NCBI GenBank assembly: GCA_964502345.1
Contig: CAZCWH010000001.1
Coordinates: 167-64,166 of the forward strand
DNA length: 64,000 bases
DNA from: an uncultured Candidatus Saccharibacteria bacterium
GTDB taxonomy: Bacteria; Patescibacteriota; Minisyncoccia; Phycocordibacterales; UBA918
Reading direction: 5' to 3'
Shown here: in pieces, positions 11,905 through 40,000 of the stretch
Layout of the letters: each line of letters opens with the position of its first letter
Position numbering within the stretch: the stretch's first letter is position 1
The notes under the pieces: model-generated
What the model was told of the DNA's origin: nothing
The model's input: only the letters and a program-made list of their open reading frames with translations
Databases searched by the model: none
Position numbers and translations under genes: made by a program

Positions 11905-12935
11905 TGTTTTGTAAGATCTATGTCGTGATGGCGGGGGTCTGAACGAGATTCACGTATGCGAAGTGGAATCGGATCAGAATCATCCTGTATATCGTCGTCA
12001 AGATATTTTTTATGCACAAAGAAAGCAAGTACGACTACAAGAAGTGCAAGCGCTGCAAAAATACTCAGAAGCATTTTGAGCGGTATCACATAAAAAAATG
12101 AAGTGTCCTGGACAGAAGCTCGCTCAGTATTTCCATATTCAATATTGAGAAATGCTTTATATTTGCCAAAAAGTCCATCGACAGGTACCTCTACCGCAAA
12201 CTCCTTCTCCTCGCCTGCATTGATTGTCTGATTATCAGTGTTTACTGGAAGTGAAGCAACTTCAACCCCTTTGCTGTCATAGAAGATGATTTCGCCTTTG
12301 GGTGTAAGTGATTCATCTCCTGGATTTTTGATTGTGTACACTGCTGCCTGATTGCCCGCTCCCGTAATAAATCTATCAATTATAAACTTGCCTAGTTTTA
12401 GAAATTCAACCTTATTGTCTGCTATTGTTGCATTAATAATACTTCCAGGAGCATCACCACGCTTTACCTGCTCTGCTGCTTCATCTCTGTTTCTTCCATA
12501 CCCAAATCCTAAAAACGCATGGTATTCGCCAGGGACTGGACTCGGATGAACTCTGAATGTGACTTCTAAGGTTTTTGTCGCACCAATCATAAGATTAATC
12601 CCTTGCCTGCTGAACTCCATCCAGGAAGAGAGGGACGCGGAACGATCACTCTCAATTGGAGAATGATACTCTTCAATCATTCCCCCTTCATTGACAGAGA
12701 TGTTATTGATGCTCGGGTAGATGGTGACCGGAGAATCACCCGTGTTTGTAATGGTTATGATCTTAGTTACAATGTCGCGTGCTTCTAGATCTAAATCAAT
12801 GACTAGTGGAGAAACAAGGTAAGACGGAGCCGCGAAGCTGACCAAAGGAAATAGCAGTGAAAGACAAAAAAGTGTTATCGGAATCCTTGTTACCATACGC
12901 ACAGATAGTATCATACTAAAAAATTGGTACCGCAA
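11901..12935 (-). CDS. DUF916/CscA-like cell-surface protein with C-terminal TM and an acidic/basic tail
   Basis: signal peptide, beta-rich ectodomain, then TM (LLSIFAALALLVVVLAFFV) plus a charged tail. It lies immediately downstream of the 2471-aa giant gene with a 20-nt overlap. Confidence 0.45.
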   Translation of the reverse strand: MRYQFFSMILSVRMVTRIPITLFCLSLLFPLVSFAAPSYLVSPLVIDLDLEARDIVTKIITITNTGDSPVTIYPSINNISVNEGGMIEEYHSPIESDRSASLSSWMEFSRQGINLMIGATKTLEVTFRVHPSPVPGEYHAFLGFGYGRNRDEAAEQVKRGDAPGSIINATIADNKVEFLKLGKFIIDRFITGAGNQAAVYTIKNPGDESLTPKGEIIFYDSKGVEVASLPVNTDNQTINAGEEKEFAVEVPVDGLFGKYKAFLNIEYGNTERASVQDTSFFYVIPLKMLLSIFAALALLVVVLAFFVHKKYLDDDIQDDSDPIPLRIRESRSDPRHHDIDLTKQ

Positions 12936-18900: not shown

Positions 18901-20331
18901 GGTAAAGACGGTTTGGGAGCCGGCTAACACATGTGATGTACCTGCGGTACTCACATTGCTATCTATTGTGTACTGGGTGTAGGAGTCATTACTATTGATT
19001 TCGTCAAAGGCAGTTGTGCGTACATGGATCCCTGGAAAAATATCAGCGAGAGTTTCTCCAAAAATATCATTATCTGTGTCATCAAACCACGTTGCATAAA
19101 TCCGTTCATCACTGACCAGATTTAAATTGATGCCGTACATATCATCAGCGCTCGTATTGAGTGGCCCCTGCTCATATCCCCAACTTGCCATGTCATCAGT
19201 CGACTTGCGCCAGTAAATATTTCCAGTCGCTAGTGTGAGAGGTGTTGTACGAGCACTATATGCTACGTACACATCGTCATTAGAGGCATCAAGTGCGATA
19301 GCAACATTCGTGATTCCTTTCTCACTATACCTCACAACCTCTTTTGTCGAGGTCCACGTACCACTCGAGTATCGTGCAGTGCGAATCTGATCGTCAGCTC
19401 CAAGGGTCGTATTACGTGCGATATATGCCAAATACACATCTCCTGTCGTCGGACTCACCGTAACAGCCATTCCAACATCATACGTAGTGTTATCTGTTGC
19501 ATTTGCATCTATGGTCGTCGATGCAGCGTCCCATGAGCCTGTGCCATTGTTCCAAACCTTACTCTCAATATTCTCTGCAACCGCAGCAACGTCACGATGA
19601 ATTGCTATGATGTCGCCACCTGGGAGAGGAGCGAGTATTGCATAGTTATTGGTAAGCCCAAATGGATTTGTACCGGTCTCAGACCAACTTCCTGCGACAT
19701 TACAACTTGAAGAACATTCAACAACAAATGAATCGGAGGCATCTATACTGCTTGCATAGATTGTTCCATCTGTTCCCTTCGTAATAGAAATTTGGTTTGC
19801 ACCTGCCGTAATGGTTCCACCCTGCCCCGTAGTCATACTAACTGGTGAGCTCCCCAAGAGGAGTGTATCCCCATTGGTATCAAGACGGTTATACCAAACA
19901 TCATCTGGGTTAGTATCGAGTGTAGCTATATGGATGTAAGTTCCAGTATCCCCTGGTGTCCACTGGTCGTACCAGACTTGCACTGAGATACAGTCAACCT
20001 GTGCATCGACTGTTGTTGTAGCGCTCCAGGTCTGCCCTCCATCCGTTGTTTTACGGTACACACAGTATCCTGGAGCATCAACAAAGAATTTGTATCCTGT
20101 TTGATCATCAATAAATACCGTTTGCGAACCCGACAGTATGTGCGACGTACCAACGGTACTTGCATCAGAATCAATAGTTGCCTGTGCAGCTTCAGCAGTA
20201 GGTACTATCCTCGTTAATAGTGCATCACCAAAACTGCTAAGCAAAAAAACGAGTATAAGAATAGACGCAACAGTCTTCTTCACTCGCAAGAGTTTTTTAA
20301 ATACAATACCTCCCATTGTCACCATTATCAC
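12916..20331 (-). CDS. giant secreted surface protein (2471 aa). It has two tandem BNR/Asp-box sialidase-like beta-propellers, repeated ~190-aa HYHWRxDDG...YCFR modules, and a conserved C-terminal module.
   Basis: signal peptide. Asp-box motifs TTDGGQTW and STDGMTTW occur in two ~390-aa units that are ~85% identical at the DNA level (about 17780-18980 and 19010-20180). The C-terminus ...GTSIRYIAVPIF is shared with the 378-aa protein. Confidence 0.85.
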   Translation of the reverse strand: MIMVTMGGIVFKKLLRVKKTVASILILVFLLSSFGDALLTRIVPTAEAAQATIDSDASTVGTSHILSGSQTVFIDDQTGYKFFVDAPGYCVYRKTTDGGQTWSATTTVDAQVDCISVQVWYDQWTPGDTGTYIHIATLDTNPDDVWYNRLDTNGDTLLLGSSPVSMTTGQGGTITAGANQISITKGTDGTIYASSIDASDSFVVECSSSCNVAGSWSETGTNPFGLTNNYAILAPLPGGDIIAIHRDVAAVAENIESKVWNNGTGSWDAASTTIDANATDNTTYDVGMAVTVSPTTGDVYLAYIARNTTLGADDQIRTARYSSGTWTSTKEVVRYSEKGITNVAIALDASNDDVYVAYSARTTPLTLATGNIYWRKSTDDMASWGYEQGPLNTSADDMYGINLNLVSDERIYATWFDDTDNDIFGETLADIFPGIHVRTTAFDEINSNDSYTQYTIDSNVSTAGTSHVLAGSQTVFTDDQTGYKFFVDAPGYCVYRKTTDGGQTWSGTTTVDAQVDCISIQVWYDQWTPGDTGDYIHIATLDTNPDDVWYNRLDTTSDTLLMGSAPVSTTNAQGGTITVGTNQISITKGTDGTIYASSIDASDSFVVECSASCNLAGSWSETGTNPFGLTNNYAILAPLPGGNIIAIHRDVGAAAENIESKVWNNGAGSWDAASTTIDSNAIDNATYDVGMAVTVSPTTGDVYLAYIADNATPGNDVLRTAVYSAGTWTPKTNVSASVVLGLTNVAIALDTSNDDVYVAYSAQATANTANTANVLWKRSTDGMTTWEYEQGPVNTSPDDIYGVDVGFVNSERLYVTWFDNTDDDIYGATLANLPSTAIATTGSQIASLYASTSNVYVGSVFSLYNTDETQAYDITGITITESGTIDGSADIANVKLFYELDTVSPYDCASVTYGGSESQFGSTDGNGFSGADGTSGFTGSTVNVDATEALCVYPVMDVLDSADSSSTIEISIANPASDVTVTSSSAGPSASQDLSGTTLVYNDTPTLVHYHWRNDDGNETTATSKTSGVEDTSLTAMRQGSTTRLRVEVSNEGSSSTPAMQYRLEYAPNPSTCEAATGWTDIGSAGGDFDMVDTLNLTDGADTTNIASGINGAVTDENATFLTPNGGVKDTVSQTGQITLSSSEFVELEYSIVASTTAVEGNTYCFRVTNQGQALSAYSVIPRANISSDVLVTIATTSQTATTTIPATDFYVGSAFVITENVSTRNVTSITISENGTVDAQTDLDNIELHYDLDTTAPYDCASDSYTGGEAQFGSTDTDGFSGPNGTSTFTGSVSISTTSTMCLYTVLDTTDTAQNDETIDIIMESPSSNLIVSGGGSVSPSITRDMNGSTTLLGAVLTQTHYHWRSDNGDETTATSLSGDAEDTAISNVAQTTPVRLRLQVSNEGTVTSLARALRLEYGAKITTCSAVTSWTDVGATGGAWEMYDSINLTDGDDSTDISILGGGVSNENSSFLSPNSAIKDTSSIIATTSITSSEYLEAEFSIEQTVDAGNDITYCFRLAASSVELNAYSKYAELTTSPERDFEIQRNSATILMGATSTTLVAGVHYITPNASTSAFIRITNIGITGAGHASGNTAAQNATNTTAYILNPSNIMTSVTIARTGVATSTRVDWEIIEFIGEPGSDNEMIVHDQTFIAYGVASTSATGSIVSGITNDDDVVVFITGQQSPDTGSANYDALPSTSAWDANNDTPYFWRGATGTDAVRVSYAVVEFKGPNWVVQRSEHTYSAAGVTETEAITALGNLTRTFIHTQKRNNRLLNGTDEFGAEVWLSSVGSVSYFLQAGATTPSGQTSVAWIIENTQTAAGAMEVTQSNGFTTGGTAPLTVSVTLPNGKVLTDLTNASIFANARSSLTTTIFPRAIAGITIASSTAFEIWRSNTGSVLTYRAEIVEWPTAGLALEQLHYQLFVDNNALKPTDPWPVGGQDLGEDTTLTATDEPLGEGERIRIRMSLQALNATWPAGTKAFKLQYAPMVSTCSAISEANWNTLGNAASSTIWRGFNATGTTDGTLLSGDPPTLGDLVLPSISDVAGTLEEENDTDANAHAVQVNETIEYDWIVEQNGANAETYYCFRMVETNGELLGNYYQHPKIRTASFTPKTQNWRWYDDENNETPVTPLAIENVAPIDIANGQAVKLRVVVKEVKNISRDDVRFKLQYSEYANFETVADVVATSTCTATSTWCYADGGGTDNSEITTGTLSDADSCVAGVGNGCGTHNESPQALSGFRHEGGDATEYEFTIQSAGPRVNLVYYFRLYDVVQGVPVSTNNSEQYPSLVTEGASLVFSVGGVASSTATEGITTDVASGTTTIPFGILPIGSDVEAVQRLRVTTNATEGYRIFMIATDDFMSGSEAIIPPITGTNASPIDWSTGCSTEATGCAGYHSGDDTLYNSNARFSAIDTYARMSTTTLDEVAYSSVPVTNEITDIVFKLKVRQSQPAGVYGTSIRYIAVPIF

Positions 20332-22255: not shown

Positions 22256-22993
22256 TTACTTAATAAATGAGTCAGCTAGAAGTATTGAAAAATCCTTAAG
22301 CGTCATGCGCCCGTCTCCATTAAAATCAAAAATCTTACCTTTTGTGAACCATGCTGCCATAAAGGCAGAGATGTCTTTAAGGTCCACTTCCCCATTACCG
22401 TCGAGATCAGTCACGAAGGCAACCTCAGCAGTTCCAATAAGCTCACCATCTACACCCGTTATGTAGATTCTTGTCTCGTCGTCCTCAACGTCCGCGACAT
22501 CAACAAGTGTTCCTAATCCATCTCCCGCAACAAATGTAGCGTTATCGGTGGTCACCTTAGCAATACCTGATTCGAGTGCTTTTGCATTGATTCGAGCAAT
22601 CGTATGCTCTCCAATAAAACCCTTTCTAAATGTTCCTCCCCGCATATATATGCGCCCATCCTTTGCATAGGGTTTCTCTGTCCACAGTGTAATGACTGAG
22701 GTCCCCGTATCAACACTTTCGATGCTCATCTGTGATTCTGGATACTTTATGGTTATATCAACAGCATTTACCGGTGTATGTGCTGTTGCGCGTACTTCTA
22801 TGTAAAAATTCTCACCTTCGAGTACTGAAGACGGACTTGTGTGAATTGAAATATATGAAGTATTTTCTGTGATTACAGAAGCAAGGCTTGCAAAGAGTGC
22901 CGTGAGTACAACCAGTGGAAATGCATATCGAACAGTCTTACCAGTTGTAAGCGTATATGATGGAAACATCATTTTCCAAATCTTTTCAAACAT
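22256..22993 (-). CDS. small secreted protein with an N-terminal cohesin-like domain and a C-terminal dockerin-like module
   Basis: cohesin-like segment VLEGENFYIEVRATAHTPVNAVDITIKYPESQMSIESVDTGTSVITLW. The C-terminus DLDGNGEVDLKDISAFMAAW...DFNGDGRMTLKDFSILLADSF is two Ca-binding dockerin-like repeats. Confidence 0.6.
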   Translation of the reverse strand: MFEKIWKMMFPSYTLTTGKTVRYAFPLVVLTALFASLASVITENTSYISIHTSPSSVLEGENFYIEVRATAHTPVNAVDITIKYPESQMSIESVDTGTSVITLWTEKPYAKDGRIYMRGGTFRKGFIGEHTIARINAKALESGIAKVTTDNATFVAGDGLGTLVDVADVEDDETRIYITGVDGELIGTAEVAFVTDLDGNGEVDLKDISAFMAAWFTKGKIFDFNGDGRMTLKDFSILLADSFIK

Positions 22994-23659: not shown

Positions 23660-25405
23660 CTATTGTACTATATGTTCGATATCTGATATTTCCTTTCGTA
23701 TCTTTGACCGTGCGTCAGCGAGATCTGTTTCAATTTGATCTATAAGAGTATTTTCTGCCTGTGTGAGCTTGCCTTTTCGTGACTCTTTCAGCTTTTCAAC
23801 ATTTTTGTGCATGTTGGTCATTACTTCGTCGAGCTCTATCTTCATTATACTCTCTACCTCAAGGGTTTCTTTCTCAACTTTTCGACGCCACACCGCAAGC
23901 CTGTGCCAGAGATACCAGCAACCAAAAATCAGTACAATAGAGAGTGAGATAAGCGGAACAAGTACAGAAAGCACCGTCACAACAAACGAACCAATTCGTA
24001 CGAATCCTGGTTCCTCAACTATAATTCTAATCGGATCTGAGACATCACTTGTTGCGCCGTGCATGTCTGTTGCAATTGCCGTTATGTCATACACACCAAT
24101 TTCAAATGGTGCGTCAGGGATGAATATGAATGCACCTCCCCCGTCGGATTTAAGTGTGTACGTTTTTGTAGCACCATCTGTTGGTGTCACTGACACCTCT
24201 ACCTGTGCGTCAGGACGTGTAGTACCCCTCAGTGCTGGGATTACTTCAGCGTTAATTCGTGATGGATACTCAGTAAAAAGTGGTTTCTCAAATGCTGTAA
24301 TATCAAATGAATATGTAGCAACTCGACTGTTACCTGCACCATCAAATGCTTCTACGATAAGTGTATGGTGTCCTGGCGCTATTGAAGGAAGCACGTACTT
24401 TCTCGTTTCTTCCTCATCTAGATATTCAAAAGGGTCAGTAGCATCAATCTGTATTTTGTATCGTGTTACAGGAGAAATATCTTCCACAGTAAACTGAAGT
24501 GTTCGCTTTGGATTTGATGGATCAAAATCAGTATCTTCTGAAACAGTAAATGCTGACGGCGCCTCACTATCTACCTGGATTTTAAAGTGGGTTACCCTAC
24601 CCCATCCCTCTGCATTTTTAAACTGAATATGGAAATACGATATGCCTTGTGGCAAATCCTCGAGTGTACGTGATCGAATGGGCTCGTCATATACGATGGT
24701 TGGTATTGTACTTGGAGCAGTGTCGAGTAATGTACGTACTGCAATAATTCCACTCGGTAGTTCCCAACTAAGCTCTGCAGCGTCATTCTTGTACCAGGTC
24801 TCCTGATTACCATGAGTCGTTGAAGTGACAACTGGAGCCTTTGGGGTATTGGCTGGTGCAATATACTCAGGCTCTGGATTACTCGTTACTGCAGAAATTG
24901 TATAGGAAGAACCAGTCATTGATGTCAGAACATTTGTTCCAAGTCCATCAGCTGCAAGCACTGAACCACTCTTAAAGGTGACTTTTGGATTACCTGCACC
25001 AAGAGGTCTAAACGTAATTGTTAAAATGTTCCCCGAGGCTCCGGTGTAACCCGTTGGTGATCCTCCTCCAAACGATATTGTGCCTAATGTATTTGAAAAA
25101 CTTGGCTCCTGTGTCCACAAATTAAAAATGGAACTCGCTCGAGAGACACTGACGACAGAAAGCTCCTTTGGGTTATAAGAAAGCTGACCATCTGCAGCAT
25201 TGACTGCTTTGTTTTGAGTATTAATGATCACATTTGCGGTAAATGTCCCTCCAACGGTATACACTCCCGTATCTGGACTCACACGAAGTGTTGCAGCATG
25301 TGCCGACTGTGTCATACAGATATACAACACACTCAAGAGACCAACGATGATGATCGTTCGTAAAAATACTATTCCTATACTATTCGATTTCAACATTGTC
25401 TTCAT
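23660..25405 (-). CDS. cohesin-domain bitopic membrane protein with a cytoplasmic coiled-coil tail
   Basis: signal peptide, then a cohesin-like domain (ATLRVSPDTGVYTVGGTFTANVIINTQNKAVNAADGQLSYNPKELSVVSVS...NLW). Ig-like domains follow, then a TM (IGSFVVTVLSVLVPLISLSIVLIFGCWYLW) and a ~90-aa charged helical tail. Confidence 0.7.
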   Translation of the reverse strand: MKTMLKSNSIGIVFLRTIIIVGLLSVLYICMTQSAHAATLRVSPDTGVYTVGGTFTANVIINTQNKAVNAADGQLSYNPKELSVVSVSRASSIFNLWTQEPSFSNTLGTISFGGGSPTGYTGASGNILTITFRPLGAGNPKVTFKSGSVLAADGLGTNVLTSMTGSSYTISAVTSNPEPEYIAPANTPKAPVVTSTTHGNQETWYKNDAAELSWELPSGIIAVRTLLDTAPSTIPTIVYDEPIRSRTLEDLPQGISYFHIQFKNAEGWGRVTHFKIQVDSEAPSAFTVSEDTDFDPSNPKRTLQFTVEDISPVTRYKIQIDATDPFEYLDEEETRKYVLPSIAPGHHTLIVEAFDGAGNSRVATYSFDITAFEKPLFTEYPSRINAEVIPALRGTTRPDAQVEVSVTPTDGATKTYTLKSDGGGAFIFIPDAPFEIGVYDITAIATDMHGATSDVSDPIRIIVEEPGFVRIGSFVVTVLSVLVPLISLSIVLIFGCWYLWHRLAVWRRKVEKETLEVESIMKIELDEVMTNMHKNVEKLKESRKGKLTQAENTLIDQIETDLADARSKIRKEISDIEHIVQ

Positions 25406-28537: not shown

Positions 28538-29662
28538 TCACCCGGTCCAGTTGAAGAGAAGGATTGAGAAGTCTTCGAGACTGACTCGACCATTTTGATT
28601 AATGTCTGCTGGAGGATTCGAGTTTCCACCTGGCGTATTCCACCAAAAAATCAGGATTGAAAAGTCGATTAGATTTACCTTCCCGTCACGATTGAGATCC
28701 GAGTTACTCGTCGGCCTCCCCTCAACTCCTACAAATAGTGACAGTGCCGTACCATAGGTACTTTCTGTTTTGAGGTTGCCTGTTCCTTCAATGAATCGTG
28801 CCTTTGCGGTGTGTGTATCTGCGGTGACGCTCGATGTATTGAAATCAACACTCCAATTTCCATTCGCGTCTGATGTTGTCCTCAGAGTTTGCTTTCCATT
28901 ATCAATTGATACTTCAACTGCAACACTTGGAACTGTTTGCCCACGCAAAATTATTGTCTCACCGGGATTAGGAGCATTATTGGAAGCACGTATAGTTGGT
29001 GGAATTAGCACACCGTTTACGTTTGTCACTGCACCCTGCGTTATATCAAACGTAGTACTGAATGTTGCAGATCGTGTCCCCGCAGTATCATTTGCCCAAA
29101 AGCTAAGTGATGCTGTACCAGGTTCAGTATCTGTATTAAATAAAAATTCTCCCCTACTATTTGTACGCACAGTCCCCACTGACTCACCATCAATTAAAAT
29201 AGTAACGGTGACATTCGGATACGCTTTCCCCTGCACAGTCACTTGCGTATCGCCAAGTTCGGTATCTCGTCCTCCTGACCCTGAATTTCCACCACCACCG
29301 GTCGATCCTCCTCCTGCATCTGCTTCTTCTTCTGTACAGTCTGCTGCACAAAAATCACCATCGGTATTGTTACCATCATCACACTCCTCTGAATAAATCG
29401 TTTGTAAAATAGCATCACCACAATATGGTGCCCACCTACAAATATCAGTGCACTGTCTTCCTGCGATTGTTGTGCTGTATTCCCCAGTATCTGTTGGGAT
29501 ATCACAGCTTTCTCCTGCATTGACAATAAGGTCACCACAAATACTAATGAGTAGCGAAGTCGTCGCAATACTTGATTGAGACGAAGCAACAAGAGGAACA
29601 AACATGGTGAGCAAACCACATATGCTTAGAATGAAATGATACGCAGGTCGTTTAGCGTACAT
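28538..29662 (-). CDS. secreted dockerin-bearing protein. Myxococcus-type Cys-rich repeats, a Gly-rich linker, two Ig-like domains, and a C-terminal dockerin.
   Basis: CGDxxxxxGEECDDGNNTDGDFCAADC-type repeats. The C-terminus DLNRDGKVNLIDFSILIFWW...DINQNGRVSLEDFSILLFNWTG is a dockerin duplicated-segment motif. Confidence 0.7.
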   Translation of the reverse strand: MYAKRPAYHFILSICGLLTMFVPLVASSQSSIATTSLLISICGDLIVNAGESCDIPTDTGEYSTTIAGRQCTDICRWAPYCGDAILQTIYSEECDDGNNTDGDFCAADCTEEEADAGGGSTGGGGNSGSGGRDTELGDTQVTVQGKAYPNVTVTILIDGESVGTVRTNSRGEFLFNTDTEPGTASLSFWANDTAGTRSATFSTTFDITQGAVTNVNGVLIPPTIRASNNAPNPGETIILRGQTVPSVAVEVSIDNGKQTLRTTSDANGNWSVDFNTSSVTADTHTAKARFIEGTGNLKTESTYGTALSLFVGVEGRPTSNSDLNRDGKVNLIDFSILIFWWNTPGGNSNPPADINQNGRVSLEDFSILLFNWTG

Positions 29663-29665
29663 ATG

Positions 29666-30604
29666 CTAACGTGCTCGCGAGCGTCGTGACTTCCCTATGC
29701 GTATGACAACAAACGCAAACGATATAATAAAGAATAATACTGGTGCAATCACAGAAAGCTTGTGCGGTAATGAAAGTCCACTAAACCCAAAACCAGCAGT
29801 CTGTAATGTTCCATACGGCAAGATACTCACGTTTACTTCACCATTTAACTTAACCTCCTCATCGTTCAATATCTCAAATCGTGCTAGGTAACTTCCTGCA
29901 GGGAGTCTTGTTGGCAATTCAGCGAACACAGTCTCAACTTTAAAAGGATCAACCTCATCTATTTTTCCCTTCTTATGAGTCTCTTCCAAAAGTACCTTGC
30001 CTGTGCTGTCATAGATTCTAAACACAACGTCACTTGGAGCGACTGGAACATTTCCTAAGTTTTCAAGAAGCATTTCAAAACGGATTTTTCCTGGGAAATA
30101 CAACCACCCAACTTTATGTCCTTCGTTTAAATCAGATATGCCAATTTTTCTTACTTTAAAATCTTTAATCTCCTTATCAATGACCGTAATATCTACATCG
30201 ATTTGTGCTCCTAGAGAAATATTTACTGCTCCACCAGACACCTGATCATCGGGGGCACCGGTCTTAATACGAATGTTACCAGTGTAATCCTTAAAATCAG
30301 CATCATCTGGAACCTTTACCCGAACGGTCATTGGAATTTTTTGCGCTCCCTGCGGTAGTAAAAATTCGTTTCCTTCAACAATAGTAAACCACTCATTGAT
30401 ACCAGGAACATCAACACTGATTGTTGCTTTAAGCGCAGTAGTTGGATCACTACGTACGAGATAAATTATTTGCTCATACTCAGAATTTCTTGTAAGACTT
30501 GCGTTCGATACATAGGGAGGCGTAATTCCAAATCCCGCATGAACAGTCGCAGTCACTGAAAAAGCAAGCAGTATAGCCAATAAAAGAGATCTATAGATTC
30601 CCAT
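29666..30604 (-). CDS. DUF916/DUF3324 (CscA)-like membrane-anchored cell-surface protein
   Basis: signal peptide, then GFGITPPYVSN... as a DUF916-like start. Two beta-rich domains, a C-terminal TM, and an RSRRSRAR tail. Confidence 0.5.
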   Translation of the reverse strand: MGIYRSLLLAILLAFSVTATVHAGFGITPPYVSNASLTRNSEYEQIIYLVRSDPTTALKATISVDVPGINEWFTIVEGNEFLLPQGAQKIPMTVRVKVPDDADFKDYTGNIRIKTGAPDDQVSGGAVNISLGAQIDVDITVIDKEIKDFKVRKIGISDLNEGHKVGWLYFPGKIRFEMLLENLGNVPVAPSDVVFRIYDSTGKVLLEETHKKGKIDEVDPFKVETVFAELPTRLPAGSYLARFEILNDEEVKLNGEVNVSILPYGTLQTAGFGFSGLSLPHKLSVIAPVLFFIISFAFVVIRIGKSRRSRAR

Positions 30605-30717: not shown

Positions 30718-32601
30718 CTACCAGTCGATTGATTCTCCTACTTTTGCAGTGAAAGTGTTTTCACCGGTATAGTCACCTGCATATGAGATAGTTATTGGAA
30801 CTCTAATACCCCAGAAAGCATCTGCCGTGGCCTGTGATGAGGTTGCTGTAGACTTAGGTACGTTGATTTCAATTTCCTTTGGCGTGGTTGAAGATAGTGT
30901 GAATCCTGCATTAACAGCATCTGTATAGCTTATAGAGCTAGTTGCAAACACCTGCTCACTTTCTGGAATTGTCGATGATGCAGACTGAGGACAGAGAGTT
31001 GATCCAGTATACGTAGTACACATTGATTCACCTGTTACATCTTTATCGAGACCAACGTTTCCAGTTGCAGCTATAGTTGTCTCAGCTACAAGAGGATCCG
31101 TTTGTTGTCCAGGTTCAAGTGCACCATATGGAATCGAAAGCGTGTTGAGAGCGAATGCAAGGAAACTTGTTACCTCAACCCCAGTATCCGCTTCTGAAAG
31201 TGATCCAGTTAATGAGACACCGTTGTTACCTTGTTGCCCATCATCAATAGCACGAACTTGTGCCCTCCAATCGTTCCATGAATACTTGGTAGACGTTGCT
31301 GTTCCATCAGTTGGATCTGCGACATACCAAAGTGGGAATGTACAATTCCAAATCATATCAACGTCTGATGAACCAGTACATGAGGTAGTTGAAGCCGTAC
31401 AATTAAGATTCCAGACAGCACTTGAAACAGAGCTTGGGTAACAATTATTTGGGTCATATGGACCAGTAACTGGGCACGTTGATGATGAACTTGTGATGGT
31501 ACCAGTACCGTTTCTGTAAATACTCAAATCGTAATCAATGACTTCATCTCCAACTCCACCACCAACCGCATCGCAACTATTATTATCTACAGTAGTAAAT
31601 GACAAACTGAAGCCTGTAGTTTCAGCTGCTTCATTCACAAGAACTATATTAGTAGTTGTCGGTTGGACAAGTGAAATAGTCGAGGCAGTAACTGTCGGTG
31701 CAATATTACCTACCGTAAGTATCGAGTTTGTTCCTTGTGTAGTAGTAGCTTCAAATCCGTGACTATCAAAAACATACCCATACGCTCCATAGTTTTGGTC
31801 TTGAGTAGGAACAACTACTGTATACGTAGCGGTTGCATTAGCAGCAACAAATACTGTGGTACTTGCAAGCGTTGTTCCTGTGCATGAGTCAGTTGTCGTA
31901 CTGAAGCCTGCTGTTGCACAAACGAAGAGCTTTACAAAGTCCTGTGTTCCAGATACATCTGCATCAGTTGAAGTACTTGTGAAAACTACAGCATTACCTG
32001 GAGTTGTCGTTGAGTTATCCCAGAATGAAGTAAAGTTTGGTCGGTGATTGATTTCAAATGGTGATGAGTTGGTTGCATTTGTTCCTTGTGTGTATGAGCT
32101 ATTGCATCGTGGTGATACTGAGTTACCGTCGCAAATCCAAGCAAACCAAGCATTGGATTCTGACCAGCTGTGTAGTGATGTGGTTGCAGCTCGTGCCTGT
32201 GTTCCAGAAGTTGTTGTTGCTGAAACTGCATACTGCACACCGTTATTACAGTGTGGCGCGCCATTGCTAGTTGCAGATGCTGTATCGCTTGTACTACATA
32301 TGAGAAGCCAGTAATCCTCAGCGTTCGAGTCTGTAGCGACTGCAACCCACGCAACTACATCCCCTGCATTAGTTGGTGTTGTTGCTGAAGACTCCGTTTC
32401 CTCTGTTGTAGAGGCTGTCCACTGAGGAGGGGTGTTAAGAACAGTAACTGATGTAGTTGCATTTTCCTGAGCAACTACTTGCTTGAGATCATTTGTACCA
32501 AGATTGAAAATAAATACAAATGCAAAAATCAGCACTCCAATGATTGTGGTGTACACAGTGATTTTACCTGCCGTACGTAAATTATCTGTGTTATATGACA
32601 T
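30718..32601 (-). CDS. secreted Cys/Thr/Ser-rich surface protein (627 aa) with the type-B C-terminal module shared with the 7248-aa giant protein
   Basis: N-terminal TM/signal. The last ~330 aa align by eye with the giant protein's C-terminus (PNNCY...DPTDG...WRA...YGALE...FWGI.[IV]P...G[TE]NTF). Confidence 0.65.
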   Translation of the reverse strand: MSYNTDNLRTAGKITVYTTIIGVLIFAFVFIFNLGTNDLKQVVAQENATTSVTVLNTPPQWTASTTEETESSATTPTNAGDVVAWVAVATDSNAEDYWLLICSTSDTASATSNGAPHCNNGVQYAVSATTTSGTQARAATTSLHSWSESNAWFAWICDGNSVSPRCNSSYTQGTNATNSSPFEINHRPNFTSFWDNSTTTPGNAVVFTSTSTDADVSGTQDFVKLFVCATAGFSTTTDSCTGTTLASTTVFVAANATATYTVVVPTQDQNYGAYGYVFDSHGFEATTTQGTNSILTVGNIAPTVTASTISLVQPTTTNIVLVNEAAETTGFSLSFTTVDNNSCDAVGGGVGDEVIDYDLSIYRNGTGTITSSSSTCPVTGPYDPNNCYPSSVSSAVWNLNCTASTTSCTGSSDVDMIWNCTFPLWYVADPTDGTATSTKYSWNDWRAQVRAIDDGQQGNNGVSLTGSLSEADTGVEVTSFLAFALNTLSIPYGALEPGQQTDPLVAETTIAATGNVGLDKDVTGESMCTTYTGSTLCPQSASSTIPESEQVFATSSISYTDAVNAGFTLSSTTPKEIEINVPKSTATSSQATADAFWGIRVPITISYAGDYTGENTFTAKVGESIDW

Positions 32602-32673: not shown

Positions 32674-33888
32674 TTATTCATACCGAATGGCATCAAGCGG
32701 GTTGAGAAGTGACGCTCTACGCGCTGGAAAAATTCCAGTTAAATAGCCTACTGCAGCCGAGAAAATCGCAATGAATGTAAGGAAGGTTAGCGGGAAAGAA
32801 AACAAGTTTACTGATTGACCACCGAACTGACTTGCCGCGATGTTCAACAGGATATTCACCACAATCCCCAGCGTTACCCCCATAGCTATCCCCGTCACAC
32901 CTCCCATGAACCCTACGACAATTGACTCGGAAATGAAGAGGAATTTAATGTCACGAGGCGAAGCGCCGAGCGTTCGCATAATCCCAATTTCTTTTGTACG
33001 TTCAAGAAGTGTGACTGTCATTGTGTTGAACATACCGATCGCTGAAACAAGGAGTGCAATACCTCCGAACGTTGCCAAGACTGCCTGCACTCCTTCAAAA
33101 ATCTTTGATGCTTGCTCAACTGTCTTTGAAAGTGCAGTAACCCGATACCCTGCCTTTATGAGTGATTCTTCGGTTACGGTGAGGAATTCATTTGATACCA
33201 CTTTCACTTGAGCACGGTCGTACTCTTCTACCCCCACGTAGTTTTTAAGTTCTTGAAGCATCATGAGTGCATTGAGTACACCTTCTTCCTTTGTAACCCC
33301 TCGAACCTTAAACTGCTTCTCGATTACAATCTCATTGATTGTATCTGTTCCATCGTCTGCAGGAATCAAGAGGCGAAATGAAACCTCCTGTCCTATAAAA
33401 GAATCGATTTTATCATCAGCAATACCGAAAAGCTTTAGAACAGCAGGTGAAATCATCACATCAGTTCCGTTTCCAATATCAGCTTCCTGAAAAACTTCTC
33501 CGTATGTCGCAGTTATACCTGAATATCGTATATATGCAGGTTCTGCTCCTTGAAGGAAGACATTACCAGTTAGACCTTTATAGGTAATGAGCGCAGGATA
33601 CCGTGCGAGCGGAGCAGCATCTTGAATATTTGGGTCCTTTTCAAATTCAGCGATAACCTCGTCAGTGATTGAAAGATTTCGTGCCCCCGTTGCCGAGACG
33701 CCAAGTGAGAGAAGACTGTCACCGAAGACAATCTGTTCAAGAATGATCTGCTGAAGACCAAACCCGAGTCCAACAAGCACAACGACTGCCCCGGTTCCCA
33801 CTCCCATACCAAGAATAGTAAGCCACGTACGAAGTGGATTCGTCTTAAACATTCTCGTTGAGAGTCGAGCGAGATCAGCAACTTGCAT
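32674..33888 (-). CDS. ABC transporter permease, FtsX/MacB-like, with a large extracytoplasmic domain
   Basis: 404 aa with TM1, an ~220-aa periplasmic-type domain, then a 3-TM FtsX domain with TLGAS...G motif context. Confidence 0.85.
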   Translation of the reverse strand: MQVADLARLSTRMFKTNPLRTWLTILGMGVGTGAVVVLVGLGFGLQQIILEQIVFGDSLLSLGVSATGARNLSITDEVIAEFEKDPNIQDAAPLARYPALITYKGLTGNVFLQGAEPAYIRYSGITATYGEVFQEADIGNGTDVMISPAVLKLFGIADDKIDSFIGQEVSFRLLIPADDGTDTINEIVIEKQFKVRGVTKEEGVLNALMMLQELKNYVGVEEYDRAQVKVVSNEFLTVTEESLIKAGYRVTALSKTVEQASKIFEGVQAVLATFGGIALLVSAIGMFNTMTVTLLERTKEIGIMRTLGASPRDIKFLFISESIVVGFMGGVTGIAMGVTLGIVVNILLNIAASQFGGQSVNLFSFPLTFLTFIAIFSAAVGYLTGIFPARRASLLNPLDAIRYE

Positions 33889-33982
33889 ACTGTAGTGTAA
33901 TAGTAAACAAAAAACACCGAATACGAAACCTGGTTGCTCGCATAACTAGCACTCAAAGCTAAAAGCGCACTTTGAGCGTGCA

Positions 33983-35305
33983 TTAATTTTTGTAACTCAC
34001 ATCAACACCGAGTGCGATGAGTTTCTCCATATAGCGAGCAATATCATCTGCTACTTTTTCCTTAAGACCAAGACCTCCTGTTTTTTCGCTTTCCATGAGC
34101 CCTTGATGGAACTGTACATCACCGTAAATACCCGAGAGCCTATCTGCAATGAGTCCAGCCATATTTTCATTTGTCTTTTTTGAAAGCGGTATATTATGAC
34201 ACTGGAGTAAATATTCCCGTACCCGTTCAGCAAATTTATGCTGTTGAAAGAATGCGGCATCTGATGTGTTATCACTTCGGTATCGTCGAACATCATCTGC
34301 CTGTGTTACGAGTGTGACTGAAAGGTCAGACATTCGCTCAGCCGTCACACGATCAATCCCAATACCTCCTTCTTCATACTTGCGGATGAGTGTCTGCGTA
34401 AAGAGTTTTTTATGTATTTTGCCTGAGATAAGCAGTCGAATCGCCTTTTCAAGTCGCACGAGTTGGTCAAATGTATAGTCTTGCGTGAGAAAGTTCGTGA
34501 GGCTTTTCACTCGAAGTGTTTCAACAGAGTCGTACGGAAAAAGACGAGCAAGTTGTTCAAGTTCAGTCACAATAGTCTCGCCTTCCATAACTGGTTTAAT
34601 CTGCTTACGTTGTGGATTAACAACCTCACGAACAATAAATCCATCTTTGAGATAGTACACGCGGTGCGCATATGCAAGGTGTGCTGCATTATGGGAAACC
34701 ATGATGATAGTACGCATATCAAATGTATTGATTTCATCAATCTTATCCATCACTTGCTGTGTCGAAACACTATCGAGATTCCCTGTCGGTTCATCCGCAA
34801 GAAGAATCTGAGGATCATTCACCATGGATCGAGCCACCGATACACGTTGCTGTTGTCCTCCAGAAAGCATAGAAGGAATTTTGTGCGATACCCCTCCCAC
34901 ACCAAAGCGATCAAGGAGCGACTGCGCTCGACGTTCACGAGTTGCCTTATTTGCATCACAAAAAATCATTGGGAGTGCCACATTATCAAGAACTGAGAGC
35001 GAACCAATGAGGTTAAATGACTGGAAGATAATACCCATGACGTATCGTTGAAAAAACACACGTTCTGCTGGTGGATACGCATATACATCATCACCACGAA
35101 TAAGCAGTGTTCCGTCCCCAGGCGGGAGTGAGCCTTGAATCGAATACATGAGTGTAGATTTACCACACCCTGATGGACCGAACAGAATGATATATTCACC
35201 CTCGTAGATATCAGTATTAACGCCTTGGAGTGCTTTAAACTCATTCGACTTACCTTTGTTGTAGGTAATCGTGAGATCTCGACAGACGATGAGTGGTTTA
35301 GCCAT
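33983..35305 (-). CDS. ABC transporter ATP-binding protein (FtsE/LolD/MacB family) with an unusual ~200-aa C-terminal extension
   Basis: Walker A GPSGCGKST, signature LSGGQQQRV, Walker B ILLADEPT, H-loop. The protein is 440 aa against ~230 for typical FtsE. Confidence 0.9.
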   Translation of the reverse strand: MAKPLIVCRDLTITYNKGKSNEFKALQGVNTDIYEGEYIILFGPSGCGKSTLMYSIQGSLPPGDGTLLIRGDDVYAYPPAERVFFQRYVMGIIFQSFNLIGSLSVLDNVALPMIFCDANKATRERRAQSLLDRFGVGGVSHKIPSMLSGGQQQRVSVARSMVNDPQILLADEPTGNLDSVSTQQVMDKIDEINTFDMRTIIMVSHNAAHLAYAHRVYYLKDGFIVREVVNPQRKQIKPVMEGETIVTELEQLARLFPYDSVETLRVKSLTNFLTQDYTFDQLVRLEKAIRLLISGKIHKKLFTQTLIRKYEEGGIGIDRVTAERMSDLSVTLVTQADDVRRYRSDNTSDAAFFQQHKFAERVREYLLQCHNIPLSKKTNENMAGLIADRLSGIYGDVQFHQGLMESEKTGGLGLKEKVADDIARYMEKLIALGVDVSYKN

Positions 35306-35311
35306 AGTGTG

Positions 35312-36823
35312 TTATCCACCGATATTCTTAACCCAACCAAAGGTGCCTTGGAAGTTTTCAATGATTATATCAATGATATTTTTCTCCTGTATTGGAGTAA
35401 AAAGTACGTAGTTCTCGGAATCCACTGCATTCTTCGCTTCATCTTCACAATTAAGCCAAAACTGATACACAGTAGCTGGTGCAAATTCAACAATAACTTC
35501 AACGTGTTGTTCACTGTAGCTGACATCTTTTGCTTCAACTAAGGTTGGGTCTACTCCTCCCACGATACCTTCTCGATAGAAAAGCTTACAAAAAGCTGGT
35601 TCATCAGTACTCCACTCAATGATAGTCTGAATACGCGATTCACCTCCTGGAAAAAGAGTTGACTCGTTTGTTACGTTACTGATTATTGGTGCAGCAGTGT
35701 CCTTAACGGTAATAAATGTAATCGGATTACTTTTTACACGATCACCACCAGCATTTTCTGCAATAACGAATGCGACATATCGTGTCCCAAGCGTGAGGTC
35801 AGCAATACGCATCTGATGTGTCGAAGCAAGTGTTGGACGCCCAATTGAATTTTGTGTACCGGTAGTAAGGTCTTGATACTCAATGAGTGCTTTTGCGGGG
35901 ACTGTTGTGTCCCACGCGAGTGTTGCTGAGTTTTCTTCAACTTTGACGATACGTAGATTTTTAATTTCTGGAAGCGAAGCCTTCGTCATAAATGTGTAAT
36001 CACGACTTTCTCCCAGAATCCCATATGTGTCCTTCGAGCGAACCTTAAAGTGATATTCGGTATATGCTTCAAGGCCAATGAGTCGAACTTCGTGCTCTGT
36101 TGTATTACCACCTGGGTCAGCTTGAGAAAAACTATACTGATCTGGGACATATGAATCAGTTGGTGAAAAAACGACTTCAGAACTTGATTCACGATCTGTG
36201 GTCCACTTGACGATAGCGCTCGTGGTCTCGGCAATAACGGTTGGAGGACCAACAATAGTAAGATCTTCGGTGATACCCTCAATTGCCTTCACGGTCTCAT
36301 TGAGGATTTCCTGCAAAATTTCAGGAGATTGAATTTGTTCAATTTGTTCAACAATTTCCTGTGTTGTCTGTGATTGAGATTGTGATTCACTCTGTACTGT
36401 TTGTTCAGTTTGAGTTTGTGACTCTGCGCCTTCCCCAGCTTCTGCACCAACCTGTGGTGTTCCTTCGGTCAGCACTTTATAGTTAGCTGAAATACCTTGG
36501 TTTCCATCTTCATCAGAAGAAACTACACGAAAATAGTATGTGCGCCCTGGTTCAAGACCGTTGAGGGTGATGGTGTGCTCCGTTTTATCAACTTGAGGAA
36601 CACGAACGATACCGTAATCCTCTTGAAGACCATAATTCACGAGTGAATCTGCATTTTCATCTGTCTCCCAGGTAATCGTTACTGTATCCTCCGCAACATT
36701 CGTAATTTGCACATTGGTTATATCAGGCGGAATTGCGTCAGCAGCACGAACGACTGGTGACACCTGTATGTAGTAAATCAACACAAAAAGCGTGAGCGCT
36801 ACTGAAGAGAGCGAACGTAACAT
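35312..36823 (-). CDS. secreted protein with tandem fibronectin type III domains
   Basis: signal peptide. Four FN3-like units (ITWETDENADSLVNYG..., IVKWTTDRESSSEVVF..., TLAWDTTVPAKALIEYQ..., IIEWSTDEPAFCKLFY...). Confidence 0.7.
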   Translation of the reverse strand: MLRSLSSVALTLFVLIYYIQVSPVVRAADAIPPDITNVQITNVAEDTVTITWETDENADSLVNYGLQEDYGIVRVPQVDKTEHTITLNGLEPGRTYYFRVVSSDEDGNQGISANYKVLTEGTPQVGAEAGEGAESQTQTEQTVQSESQSQSQTTQEIVEQIEQIQSPEILQEILNETVKAIEGITEDLTIVGPPTVIAETTSAIVKWTTDRESSSEVVFSPTDSYVPDQYSFSQADPGGNTTEHEVRLIGLEAYTEYHFKVRSKDTYGILGESRDYTFMTKASLPEIKNLRIVKVEENSATLAWDTTVPAKALIEYQDLTTGTQNSIGRPTLASTHQMRIADLTLGTRYVAFVIAENAGGDRVKSNPITFITVKDTAAPIISNVTNESTLFPGGESRIQTIIEWSTDEPAFCKLFYREGIVGGVDPTLVEAKDVSYSEQHVEVIVEFAPATVYQFWLNCEDEAKNAVDSENYVLFTPIQEKNIIDIIIENFQGTFGWVKNIGG

Positions 36824-36858: not shown

Positions 36859-36885
36859 CTGATGCATGTTATTAACATGCATCAG
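36859..36885. promoter_or_regulatory. perfect 27-nt palindrome CTGATGCATGTTA-T-TAACATGCATCAG
   Basis: direct inspection. It lies between the giant gene stop (37020) and the FN3 gene start (36823). There is no adjacent U-tract, so it looks more like an operator than a terminator. Confidence 0.4.
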
Positions 36886-37019
36886 TCCCCAATCGCATAG
36901 AACGTGACCAGAAAATAATGAGCGTAGCGATTATATTTTCTGAGTCCATCTTCATGAGCTTTTCCTATGCCTCATGAAGATGCCGTAATCAAACGCTCAA
37001 TAAAATATGGAAGTAGTAT

Positions 37020-40000
37020 CTAATCTCCAATTGCGTAAAACGTATTCGTCCCCTGGTGTGGATTCCCTGCAACTCCAAATGGAATTGCTATACCCCAGAA
37101 AAGTTGATCACTCACAGAAGGTGTCGTAGAAGTCGGCTTTGTGAGGTCAAGTTCATAATTCGTAGAACTTGCAGAAAGCTGGCTACAGAACGTACACGTG
37201 GTGTATGTAAATGTTGACGTTGCAAAGATTTGCTCATTAACAGGAATGAGTGAGGAATTACCATCAGTAAGGTCAGTTCCTGCTATCGCAATATCGAGAG
37301 CGTCATTTCCGATATTTTCAACCGTTGTTGTTGCATTATAAGAACCTGTGTCGTTATTAACTTCTAGAGCCCCATAGTTAATAGTGCTGTCTACTGTAAT
37401 TGCACGCAAAGTGAGTAGATCTATCGAAGGTGCTGTGCCTGTCGCAATAGCACCGCTTTGATCACTCACCGAAAGTTCTGCGCGCCATGTTTGACCAGCG
37501 TAGGTACCAACATCTGTTGGGTCTGCATGGTAATAGAAATCTGCCGAACACGTTACGTCACATGAACTTCCACTACAATTTTCAAACACGCACTGTGTTG
37601 GAGAAGCTATGTAGCAGTTATTTGGATCACTCGTACATGACGAGAGCACACTTGAGCGGAACATGGTAGTTGTTGCGAGATTCAAATCACCATACCCGTT
37701 GAGGTCCGAGACTGTCCCTGTTGCGTAAATTGTCGTTGTCGCACCAGGTGAAAGAGTGATGTCATTTCCACCATTAAGTGAGAGTGAGGTTACGACCGGT
37801 GTAAACACAAGACTCAATTCTGCAACCTTTGTGTATGCGTCGAGCTCTGCCCCTTCGTTTGTCACACGGAAACAATAGTTCGAATCACTCACGTTAATTG
37901 TGGGTGCGATTACATACTCAAGTTCTGTAAACTCACCTGAATCGACATCTAGGCTTCCTGTGTTATTGCTTGAATCTTCCACTACCTGTCCTGGTGTAAA
38001 CACACCCGAGCCTCCGAGGAGGTCAGTCGTACTTTCCAAGTCTGTAATATTGGAAGAAGACACCATACAAATATCACTCGTACCGCAACTTGCGACATTC
38101 GGAACCTCTACATAGTCATTGTAATCAACAGATTCACAGCTCGGTGCTGCACCCTTTGGTGCAAACTCAATCTCATAATTTTGCGCACTCACTGGAGTTC
38201 CGCTATTTTCTACGAGGAATCGAACGCGAGCAGTTTCCCCTATATCAATTCCAGAAGCAGGGGTATTACGAGCAGAAGTCCATGTTGCACCACCAGGAAC
38301 CTGTTCACCACCTAAGCTCGTAGTTGCAGCGGTTGCCATGAGCGGACGAGCTGAGTAAATATCCCATCCACCGTGGTATCCCCAAAGTGTAAATCCAACA
38401 CCTCCCGAGGTGTAGCTACTGTCCGTCGCACTGGTTGTTGCAACCACACTGCCATTTTTCGATAGCCGTACATATATTGAGTCATCGGTATCCCAATCAA
38501 CTTCAACTTCATACCAACCTGTACTGTACGTTACTGTTGTTGATGCAAGTACGGTACCACTCGTATCACGATGGGTTGCATTTTCAGAAATAGAGAGTCG
38601 ATCAACACCGAAAAGTTCGAGACATACCGCATAACTTGTCGCTCCTGTCTGAACACCAAAGTGGGTACATGATTCGTCCGCTGCTCCACTCACAGTATCA
38701 ATGTATTGGAGCCATCTAAGTGTCTGCCCTTGCGCTACCGTCACGCCAAGATTACGCATGTTCTGATCTGTCTTTGAATTGGTTTGATCAAACGCTTCAA
38801 GCCTATATGTTCGCTCATATGCGCTACTTCCCACCACACTAAAGTCTCCAGTGTCACCAGTGTACTCACTGATATTTCCATCTTCAAAGTTGTCCATGAA
38901 GTCAAACGTCGATGTTGCACTTCCATCACTCACCGTACCTTCCCCGTAGTACATGTATACAGTTGCTGTTGTTGACGTTGCAAGTGTTGGTACCTTGACC
39001 CACACAACAGCTTGTGTACTTGCAGTATATGATTCGGTGAAGTGTTCTACCGCAGTGAGCCCATCTTCTTCTGTAAATCTTAGATCATCAAAATCGGCCT
39101 GCATATCACTGTCATATGGCACGATGACCTTCACGGCGACGTCATGATAGGTTACTGGATCAGAATTTGTTACCGTGACACGCTTTCGCTTACTCCAGTC
39201 AAAGTCAAACCACTCTGAATTTGGTACGCCTTCCCCACCATCGTCGTTTCGGAATCGATACGCTGATTGCTCAATGAGTATACAGTTGCTATCGTCCCAT
39301 CGTATTGAACCACAGGCATCCCCACCATCAATATCGAATGCTTCACCATCAAAGTTTCCTGTATGTGACACAAATGTCCATGCACTCGGCGTAGAGCCAC
39401 TCAACTCTACGTTTGCTCCAGTGATAGCCGTTGTTGTTGCAAAGGCAACTCCAGTCACAAAGAGTCCTGCGTTGTAGTTGAGTGTTGTTGAGGAGAGCGT
39501 TATGAGTGAACCTCCATTTACCGCAAGCGTGAAGTTACCTTCGGTGAGTGAACTTACGGTCGTGAGACCACTTAATTTTAGTCCGTCAACATTCATATTT
39601 GCGAAGCTGTAGTAGAGTGCATTGAGTGTGCCTCCAAGAATATCAATCGCATAGGTACCGCTTCCTTGATTAGAAATAGTTGTATCAAATCCACTTGCTC
39701 CTACGATATTGAGTGATCCACCCTGAAGTGTCGTGGTTGCATTCGCCGCAATGTACACAAATACCTGTCTTGAACTTCCGCCAAGCGCGGTGCCATCGAA
39801 ATCAGTTGCATAGCTCCAGTAGTCAGCACCTGCGGTTCGCTCATAATCTCCATAGATGTAGAGGACACCACTTACACCTGCATGATCTTGTGAGTAAAAT
39901 GAACTTTCTGAATCAGTGATTGTAATCGTGCCCGTACTATCCCACGCACGAAGCTCCGTACTTGAACCAACGCGGATATTGTTGTAGGTATCTCCACCCG

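Follow-up and report, generated by a model that had tools for sequence, protein, structure and literature searches.

A conserved module of an FN3 protein, an extended ABC ATPase and a MacB-type permease in Patescibacteria

The locus and its proteins

We analysed a stretch of 64,000 nucleotides (nt) from an uncultured Candidatus Saccharibacteria bacterium (contig CAZCWH010000001.1, positions 167 to 64,166; the whole stretch is referred to as the window), and within it a group of genes encoding a secreted FN3 protein, an ABC ATPase and a permease. The genes of the region, all encoded on the minus strand, follow one another in the order giant surface protein gene (37020-58766, 7248 amino acids (aa), with three DUF2341 matches and Ig-like matches in Pfam), a 27-nt palindrome, FN3 protein gene (35312-36823, 503 aa), ATPase gene (33983-35305, 440 aa), permease gene (32674-33888, 404 aa), and genes for three further surface proteins, p627, p312 and p374. 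The ATPase start comes 6 nt after the FN3 stop codon, the ATPase and permease genes are separated by 94 nt, and the permease and the next gene by 72 nt. The order from the giant gene to the permease had been proposed in an earlier reading of the DNA (the original prediction), and each of its elements lay where that reading had placed it.

The FN3 protein has a single hydrophobic segment by hydropathy, which is N-terminal and signal-like. FN3 domains occupy residues ~30-120, 190-282, 283-372 and 373-478, and an acidic, Q-rich linker occupies residues 121-189. Pfam matched the protein to fn3/Pur_ac_phosph_N. Profiles built for the separate domains from 67 orthologues cross-matched all four FN3 positions, and the description of the protein as carrying four FN3 domains therefore stands. 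The domains are followed by a C-terminal tail, residues 479-503 (35315-35389, IQEKNIIDIIIENFQGTFGWVKNIGG), with the consensus FTPIQEKNIIDLILENFESTFGWVKNI and the window version IIDIIIENFQGTFGW. Mean column identity was 0.93 in the tail compared with 0.76-0.89 in the FN3 domains and 0.54 in the linker, making the tail the best-conserved portion of the protein. It is amphipathic as judged by its hydrophobic moment, and its hydropathy is below the transmembrane (TM) threshold. In ~74 loci of Kaiserbacteria type the tail was near-invariant, and it could be recognised in four loci that are more distant. We propose that it serves as a docking or recognition element. Anchoring of an exported protein by a C-terminal amphipathic helix is known from E. 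coli PBP5.

The first 227 residues of the ATPase (34625-35305) form a nucleotide-binding domain (NBD) that belongs to the MacB/LolD/FtsE clade and retains all catalytic motifs. Residues 26-174 match Pfam ABC_tran and Walker A spans G43-T51; Q95, the LSGGQ signature at 147-151, D171-E172 and H205 were invariant across 43 homologues. The top NCBIfam matches were DarD, LolD, MacB and FtsE, with scores of 164-184 bits that are all far under the family cut-offs. The nearest solved chains in a PDB sequence search were Spr0694, MJ0796, MacB and BceA (best 5xu1_A, E 5e-45). The LolD, FtsE, DarD and MacB-NBD models stop at ~222-227, leaving ~213 residues (228-440) unmatched, in agreement with the predicted 440-aa ATPase in which a complete catalytic core is followed by about 200 extra residues.

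This extension begins with a lead segment of 48 residues (228-275; 34481-34624, VVNPQRKQIKPV.EGETIVTELEQLARLFPYDS...), which had a mean column identity of 0.94 across 74 orthologues, compared with 0.93 for the NBD, with many columns invariant. The lead segment is probably an interaction surface. It is followed by two helical modules, module 1 at residues ~270-339 (34289-34498), ending in EEGGIGIDRVTAERM, and module 2 at residues ~363-436 (33998-34219), ending in KTGGLGLKEKVADDI; their mean column identities of 0.65-0.71 in the same orthologues are below those of the lead segment and the NBD. Alignment of module 1 with module 2 by hhalign (probability 95%, E 3e-8) identified the extension as a tandem duplication of a ~75-aa helical module. 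The motif ...LD.P...GG.GL....A was present in both modules across 42 distant homologues, and each module ends in a GG-x-G-h-x3-4-A turn. The turn looks like a helix-hairpin-helix, a resemblance only: the extension was tested for a helix-hairpin-helix family profile or fold, and no supporting match was obtained. AlphaFold2 modelled the extension alone as two helical bundles with a predicted local distance difference test score (pLDDT) of 73.7; the full-length ATPase, modelled from a more diverse alignment, reached 87.5, with 83-94 in the modules. The ATPase has no hydrophobic segment by hydropathy, indicating that the extension is soluble.

No known family was found for the extension. Pfam gave no match at residues 228-440, and a lenient scan (E<=10) of 16 extension sequences gave no recurrent family; neither Pfam nor NCBIfam has a model for the extension or for the FN3 protein tail. 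PDB sequence searches with the extension alone and with a 16-sequence profile returned nothing meaningful (best E 0.09, ribosomal L20), a Foldseek search of the extension against PDB gave no match, and the full-length ATPase model aligned with solved ABC ATPases over the NBD only, at most 269 of its 440 residues. The extension had been said to lack an obvious counterpart in FtsE and LolD, and the same is true of every solved ABC ATPase. Word-indexed searching with the extension yielded 87 homologues, and when 1.84 billion representatives were searched exhaustively with a profile, 253 clusters contained it at E<=1e-3. In the full-length proteins among these clusters it was always C-terminal to an NBD of the MacB/LolD class. 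Some of the extended ATPases are 545-775 aa long, with added low-complexity tails. Shortened database homologues (351, 295, 280 and 255 aa) were read as artefacts, because they begin at internal Met codons and lie mostly on contigs of ~1-7 kb; the exception, on a 65-kb contig (locus L054), is the frame-broken locus L001.

The permease matched MacB_PCD at residues 21-212 (E 7e-16) and FtsX at residues 273-394 (E 5e-16) in Pfam. By hydropathy it consists of TM1 (23-41), an outside domain of ~220 aa and TM2-4, so that the FtsX C-terminal domain and the large extracytoplasmic domain between TM1 and TM2 that characterise a type VII ABC permease are both present, as is an NBD of the corresponding clade with intact motifs. 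The nearest solved chains in PDB sequence searches were YtrF, Spr0695, MacB, LolF/C/E and YbbP, with no FtsX chain among the matches at E<=1e-3. The best NCBIfam match was lolCE, over the full length, at 86.1 bits (cut-off 362). The FtsX equivalog models FtsX_actino, FtsX_Gpos and FtsX_Gneg scored 41.6, 40.9 and 31.6 bits against cut-offs of 250, 225 and 255, and matched the C-terminal TM2-4 region only. For the ATPase, LolD scored 165.8 bits (cut-off 307.75) and FtsE TIGR02673 164.2 bits (cut-off 264.85), the latter a model of 214 positions compared with the 440 aa of the protein. The pair thus falls outside the FtsX and FtsE equivalogs that define division FtsEX, and outside the LolC/E and LolD equivalogs that define LolCDE. 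MacAB-TolC has a MacA/HlyD protein encoded alongside and an NBD fused to the permease; here the NBD and permease are separate genes, and no HlyD-type family was found in the flanking open reading frames (ORFs) by Pfam or in related loci. Nor does the locus have the HlyB-type permease and the substrate without N-terminal signal that mark type 1 secretion. M23, CHAP, NlpC and amidase domains were absent from Pfam scans of the window ORFs of at least 150 aa and of the giant protein, although such domains may have escaped detection; no EnvC/PcsB-like gene was found in the window ORFs scanned, and no LolA or LolB was seen in them.

On these Pfam, NCBIfam and PDB sequence matches, the ATPase and permease belong to the type VII class (MacB/LolCDE/FtsEX), as originally proposed; mechanotransmission itself we infer. 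The permease had been described as FtsX/MacB-like with a large outside domain. The MacB-like part of this description and the outside domain were borne out, and the likeness to FtsX was not: by its matches the permease is MacB/LolC/YtrF-like.

Conservation in close and distant relatives

To survey the relatives, one genome for each GTDB species was scanned for the extension, giving matches in 101 species, from which 80 loci were kept. The species were all patescibacterial by title, except for a few likely mis-binned metagenome-assembled genomes, and the named homologues were from Candidatus Kaiserbacteria/Paceibacteria, within Patescibacteria. When the window proteins were compared with these loci by tblastn, the FN3-ATPase-permease order of the window was found in ~80 species-level genomes, so the gene neighbourhood is conserved. 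Synteny was near-perfect, and took in the giant protein C-terminus, the FN3 protein, ATPase, permease, p627, p312, p374, p378, p363 and a cohesin protein. Identity to the window was 70-89% for the ATPase and 72-89% for the permease, ~50% for the giant C-terminus (600 aa, syntenic in ~80 loci) and ~45% for p627. No other genes of the cluster are as well conserved as those for the ATPase and permease, and an extended ATPase with a MacB-type permease is also present in lineages with no giant gene nearby. These two results contradict the idea that the pair is specific to the surface-gene island. The original prediction had also asked whether the extension is conserved in the division FtsE of relatives. 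Relatives do retain it, and its neighbour there is in every case a permease with MacB_PCD, never one of FtsX type.

Of 82 related loci, 73 have the ATPase intact as a single ORF of ~440 aa. The gene is split in L001 and L002, and the possibility of a programmed frameshift that this raised was rejected because the positions of the breaks differ, the permease and p627 of L002 are also broken, and the gene is intact in the 73 loci. The ATPase, permease and p627 are all frame-broken in L002, and L001 (9520-10843) and L040 each have a single ATPase break at other positions; these breaks are probably sequencing errors or local decay. L002 (1645-2043 and 10527-11192) also has an inserted gene of the 23S-rRNA-IVP family separating the FN3 and ATPase genes and, further along, a Y1 transposase. 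In L008 (10637-13818), L013 (7451-11694), L004 and L010, 2-4 kb of unrelated genes lie between the ATPase and permease. The L008 insert encodes an unknown 428-aa protein, a trypsin-like peptidase and a sugar transferase, and the L013 insert a PAS histidine kinase and two response regulators.

More distant lineages, with ATPases 33-38% identical to that of the window, have a gene for a protein of 1,152-2,764 aa directly upstream of the ATPase, 2-12 nt away. In their last ~480 residues (in L089, ~300-480) these large proteins show homology to the mature FN3 protein, spanning most or all of it. A protein ending in four FN3 domains and the tail is encoded directly upstream of the ATPase in L083, L087/L088, L089, L090 (a partial ORF) and L093/L094. 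In L092 the gene for the FN3-tail protein lies downstream instead, two genes past the permease, and the genes upstream encode a LamG/DUF2341 giant and a further protein of 2,277 aa. In all, such a protein was found in the operon in 6 of 7 informative distant lineages. The C-terminal tail is ...FTPIQEKNIIDIIIENFQGTFGWVKNIGG in the window, ...FTPRKEQSVLELIIGNFEETFGFIRNRGQ in L083, ...LTPNRSDSIFQVIVKTFEDTFGWMKVW in L089 and ...LTPQQKQTILDIMINNFEQVFGWTKKITG in L093. The module lies between ribosomal-protein genes and hrcA-grpE-dnaK-dnaJ in L087/L088. In L089 a response-regulator gene is just upstream of the FN3-tail giant. In L093 (8641-10556) and L094 (4566-6481) the module is directly followed by a second, plain pair, an FtsX-type permease of 409 aa and an ABC ATPase of 231 aa that lacks the extension. 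The permease of L084 (9387-11315) has 642 aa, including a 240-aa N-terminal extension with extra hydrophobic segments.

In a reciprocal test, metagenomes were searched with a degenerate DNA pattern for P-x9-I-I-x-N-F-[EQ]-x-x-F-G, the tail motif, which matched at least 120 stretches. In at least 109 of the 120 stretches listed, an FN3 domain led into 'LTP' and the tail, with the reading frame stopping within 20-32 codons; in all of these the tail formed the very end of the protein and had an FN3 domain before it. The figures that follow refer to the matches listed. Seventy-seven stretches were informative, having at least 1.4 kb downstream, and in 43 of these the ORF directly after the tail gene matched the profile of the NBD as well as that of the extension. 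A MacB-type permease was also present in 27 of the 30 extended-ATPase stretches with enough sequence. The 43 ATPases included 24 with less than 60% identity to the window ATPase, 17 of them below 45%.

As judged from sequence, then, the conserved unit is the FN3-tail protein together with the extended ATPase and the MacB-type permease, and linkage to the giant gene is lineage-specific and outside the core module. A functional link between the pair and a neighbouring surface protein, as envisaged in the original prediction, is strongly suggested specifically for the FN3 protein, which travels with the pair and has a near-invariant tail.

Neighbouring surface genes and the giant-FN3 spacer

Downstream of the permease are the syntenic genes for the surface proteins p627 (30718-32601), p312 (29666-30604) and p374 (28538-29662), the last with DUF4215, Ig-like domains and a dockerin. 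They are context in the Kaiserbacteria-type lineage and are outside the deep core module. The C-terminal ~260 aa of p627 are ~28-36% identical to the C-terminus of the giant protein (window 37020-37800), which suggests that the two proteins may have a common anchoring or assembly domain. By hydropathy, p312 begins with a signal-like segment and ends in a TM anchor that carries a basic tail; it gave only a faint S-layer-type match. Elsewhere in the window, a 450-aa protein (10552-11904) weakly matched the peptidoglycan-binding domain of WxL-interacting proteins, and the surface-gene cluster may resemble cell-surface-complex loci of Gram-positive bacteria. Around the giant gene are genes for cohesin proteins (58850-60382, 23660-25405 and 22256-22993) and dockerin proteins (61171-63042 and 28538-29662), implying that this patescibacterium may build a surface structure assembled through cohesin-dockerin pairing. 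Further downstream, in the same orientation, is another very large ORF (12916-20331, 2471 aa), which gave a weak BNR-repeat match. tRNA and Rfam scans of the window gave no matches.

The spacer between the giant and FN3 genes is 196 nt long, and contains the 27-nt palindrome and a second hairpin. The palindrome is perfect (13+1+13; 36859-36885, assigned to neither strand), lies 35 nt upstream of the FN3 start codon and is not followed by a T-run. The hairpin (36947-36982, likewise assigned to neither strand) has a perfect 12-bp stem and a 12-nt loop. The sequence of the window palindrome was absent from the giant-FN3 spacer of every relative compared; it was therefore rejected as an element of the conserved module, and lies outside it. 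Fifteen relatives' spacers could be delimited, and most were 17-94 nt long without an inverted repeat. In L029 the same spacer contains a perfect 13-1-13 palindrome of unrelated sequence. These observations suggest that the palindrome is a structural hairpin (RNA or operator) that varies between lineages.

Proposed function and alternatives

We propose that the FN3-tail protein, extended ATPase and permease constitute a new type VII ABC mechanotransmission system, restricted to Patescibacteria, with the FN3-tail protein as extracytoplasmic partner or substrate. We put the probability of this reading at about one half. The FN3 protein would be exported by its Sec-type signal. It, or the FN3x4-tail end of a surface protein of 1,100-2,800 aa, would then engage the permease through the C-terminal amphipathic helix, which could bind either the permease extracytoplasmic domain or an outer-leaflet groove between TM helices. 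ATP binding and hydrolysis in the cytoplasm would cause a long-range conformational change, and no substrate would pass through the membrane. Two outcomes can be envisaged. The permease might hold a surface fibre and transmit force to it, as in FtsEX-EnvC/PcsB, or the helix-anchored protein might be pulled from the membrane and freed to the wall or surface layer, in the manner of LolCDE and by analogy with YbbAP-TesA. Either way the pair may remodel or release surface proteins, as had been suggested for this locus. The ~213-aa cytoplasmic extension would be a regulatory or adaptor domain, with the lead segment as its likely interface. The characterised type VII systems each have a dedicated partner, namely EnvC, LolA, MacA-TolC or TesA (PMC12646458). 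In the Kaiserbacteria-type lineage the module is embedded among the giant DUF2341 gene and cohesin/dockerin genes, which makes a role in a surface apparatus plausible.

A bolder form of this proposal, which we regard as doubtful, is that the module represents a fifth, Patescibacteria-specific class of type VII mechanotransducer. The permease would grip the tail helix of the FN3-array or giant surface protein, ATP would be used to anchor, tension or release the fibres by which these ultrasmall episymbionts attach to hosts, and the extension would link the system to a signal in the cytoplasm, perhaps a response regulator or a nucleic acid. The tail would then represent a new kind of C-terminal signal for sorting or docking.

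Several observations weigh against the proposed system. The contact between tail and permease is a prediction, drawn from sequence conservation. The high conservation of the pair and its housekeeping neighbourhood would suit an essential envelope or division role equally well. Unrelated genes split the ATPase from the permease in some relatives, and in L084 the pair, located between the genes for EF-P and the CCA-adding enzyme, has no FN3-tail gene nearby. Finally, in 34 of the 77 informative metagenome stretches among the matches listed, the tail gene is followed by unrelated housekeeping genes. In those 34 loci the large tail ORF runs off the upstream end, and the ABC pair may be upstream, as in L092. 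The tail-ABC association is thus strong, and the gene order is not universal.

The pair could instead be the lineage's equivalent of FtsEX, a motor with a housekeeping role in envelope remodelling. The extension would then connect it to the divisome, the FN3 protein would serve as adaptor, and the surface genes would merely adjoin it in Kaiserbacteria-type genomes. The ATPase and permease are, as noted, the most conserved genes of the cluster, the lead segment is as constrained as the NBD, FtsE is within the top four NCBIfam matches of the ATPase, and in other lineages the module is found among ribosomal, EF-P and hrcA-grpE-dnaK genes. We nevertheless consider this explanation unlikely. The permease has a ~220-aa MacB_PCD domain and no FtsX-type ectodomain, its PDB matches are YtrF, MacB and LolC/E/F, and the FtsX and FtsE models fell far below their cut-offs (31-42 bits compared with 225-255, in the TM region only, and 164 compared with 265). 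No peptidoglycan hydrolase or EnvC/PcsB-like gene accompanies the pair in the window ORFs scanned, and ftsE and ftsX have been annotated in other Patescibacteria lineages (PMC11809585; bioRxiv 10.1101/2024.03.08.584096), at the level of annotation.

A further possibility, in our view decidedly unlikely, is a conventional pump of the MacB/YknYZ/BceAB kind: the pair would provide efflux of, or resistance to, a peptide, toxin or lipid-like compound and would have no relation to the adjoining FN3 and giant genes. The best ATPase matches are exporter families (DarD, bacteriocin and MacB NBDs), homologues are named 'ABC-type multidrug transport system ATPase' in their source records, and a second, plain ABC/FtsX pair adjoins the module in L093/L094. 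A pump would not account for retention of the FN3-tail gene in the operon across lineages that are 33-38% identical, or for its tight spacing of 2-12 nt from the ATPase; it would leave the conserved cytoplasmic extension unexplained, and there is no conserved HlyD-type membrane-fusion or sensor-kinase partner.

It is highly improbable that the pair exports the large upstream protein in a type-1-secretion-like manner with the tail as an uncleaved secretion signal: the placing of an ABC ATPase and permease right after a large repetitive surface protein does resemble RTX-adhesin/type 1 secretion loci, and the conserved signal is at the extreme C-terminus, but the permease has the MacB fold (4 TM and a periplasmic domain) and no HlyB-type exporter domain, there is no gene for a membrane-fusion protein, and the FN3 protein and its large relatives carry N-terminal signal or anchor segments, which point to Sec export. 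MacB-type dimers are not known to have a transmembrane substrate channel.

The proposed system shares features with several known ones. The permease architecture (TM1, MacB_PCD, TM2-4/FtsX) and NBD clade are those of MacB (MacAB-TolC) and of Streptococcus pneumoniae Spr0693-0695 (PDB 5xu1), with 5xu1_M and MacB among the best permease matches. It differs from MacB in its separate NBD polypeptide, 213-aa helical extension, FN3-array partner and lack of a membrane-fusion gene, and misses every NCBIfam equivalog cut-off by a wide margin. LolCDE is also of type VII, supplies the best permease match (lolCE) and offers the concept of extraction by way of a hydrophobic or amphipathic outer-leaflet anchor; the handle proposed here is a C-terminal amphipathic helix rather than an N-terminal lipid. 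A patescibacterium is expected to have no outer membrane. FtsEX-EnvC/PcsB/CwlO/RipC has the same type VII mechanotransducer logic, with an extracytoplasmic partner and an ATPase facing cytoplasmic partners. Its ectodomain is about half the size of the MacB_PCD ectodomain found here, and the module has an FN3-array partner and, in the ORFs scanned, no hydrolase or coiled-coil activator.

The nearest solved match to the permease is B. subtilis YtrF (PDB 9o9x/9o9y; E 9e-30), over residues 241-404 (TM2-4 only). YtrEF has no FN3 partner, and YtrE is not known to have a C-terminal extension. YtrEF is described as a monoderm MacB-like system tied to cell-wall phenotypes (PMC8060467; PMC12772383). YbbAP-TesA is a type VII system with a co-encoded extracytoplasmic partner, and is proposed to extract hydrophobic membrane compounds (PMC12646458); the TesA partner is a lipid hydrolase, and YbbP is a duplicated permease of 804 aa that matched only weakly (E 4.6e-4). 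Importer ATPases also carry C-terminal domains: MetN has a C2/NIL domain, MalK a TOBE domain and ProV a CBS domain. The extension differs from these in fold, being all-helical and duplicated, and is attached to an NBD of the exporter/mechanotransducer class.

We found no account of the module, the extension or the tail in the literature on MacB-like or type VII ABC systems in Patescibacteria or on giant cohesin/dockerin proteins. The module is undescribed; as read here it is a type VII ABC system with a dedicated partner, and not a categorically new mechanism. Type VII systems are few, and each performs a key envelope job through a partner (FtsEX-EnvC, LolCDE-LolA, MacAB-TolC, YbbAP-TesA). The module adds a candidate type of partner, an FN3 array or giant surface protein with a ~25-aa C-terminal helix, and a new cytoplasmic domain of the ATPase. 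The tail motif and the extension are simple signatures by which hundreds of genes now called 'hypothetical' or 'multidrug ABC' could be annotated. Surface attachment is central to Patescibacteria, and very few of their machines have been characterised. If the pair were instead a division motor, it would be informative on how Patescibacteria divide.

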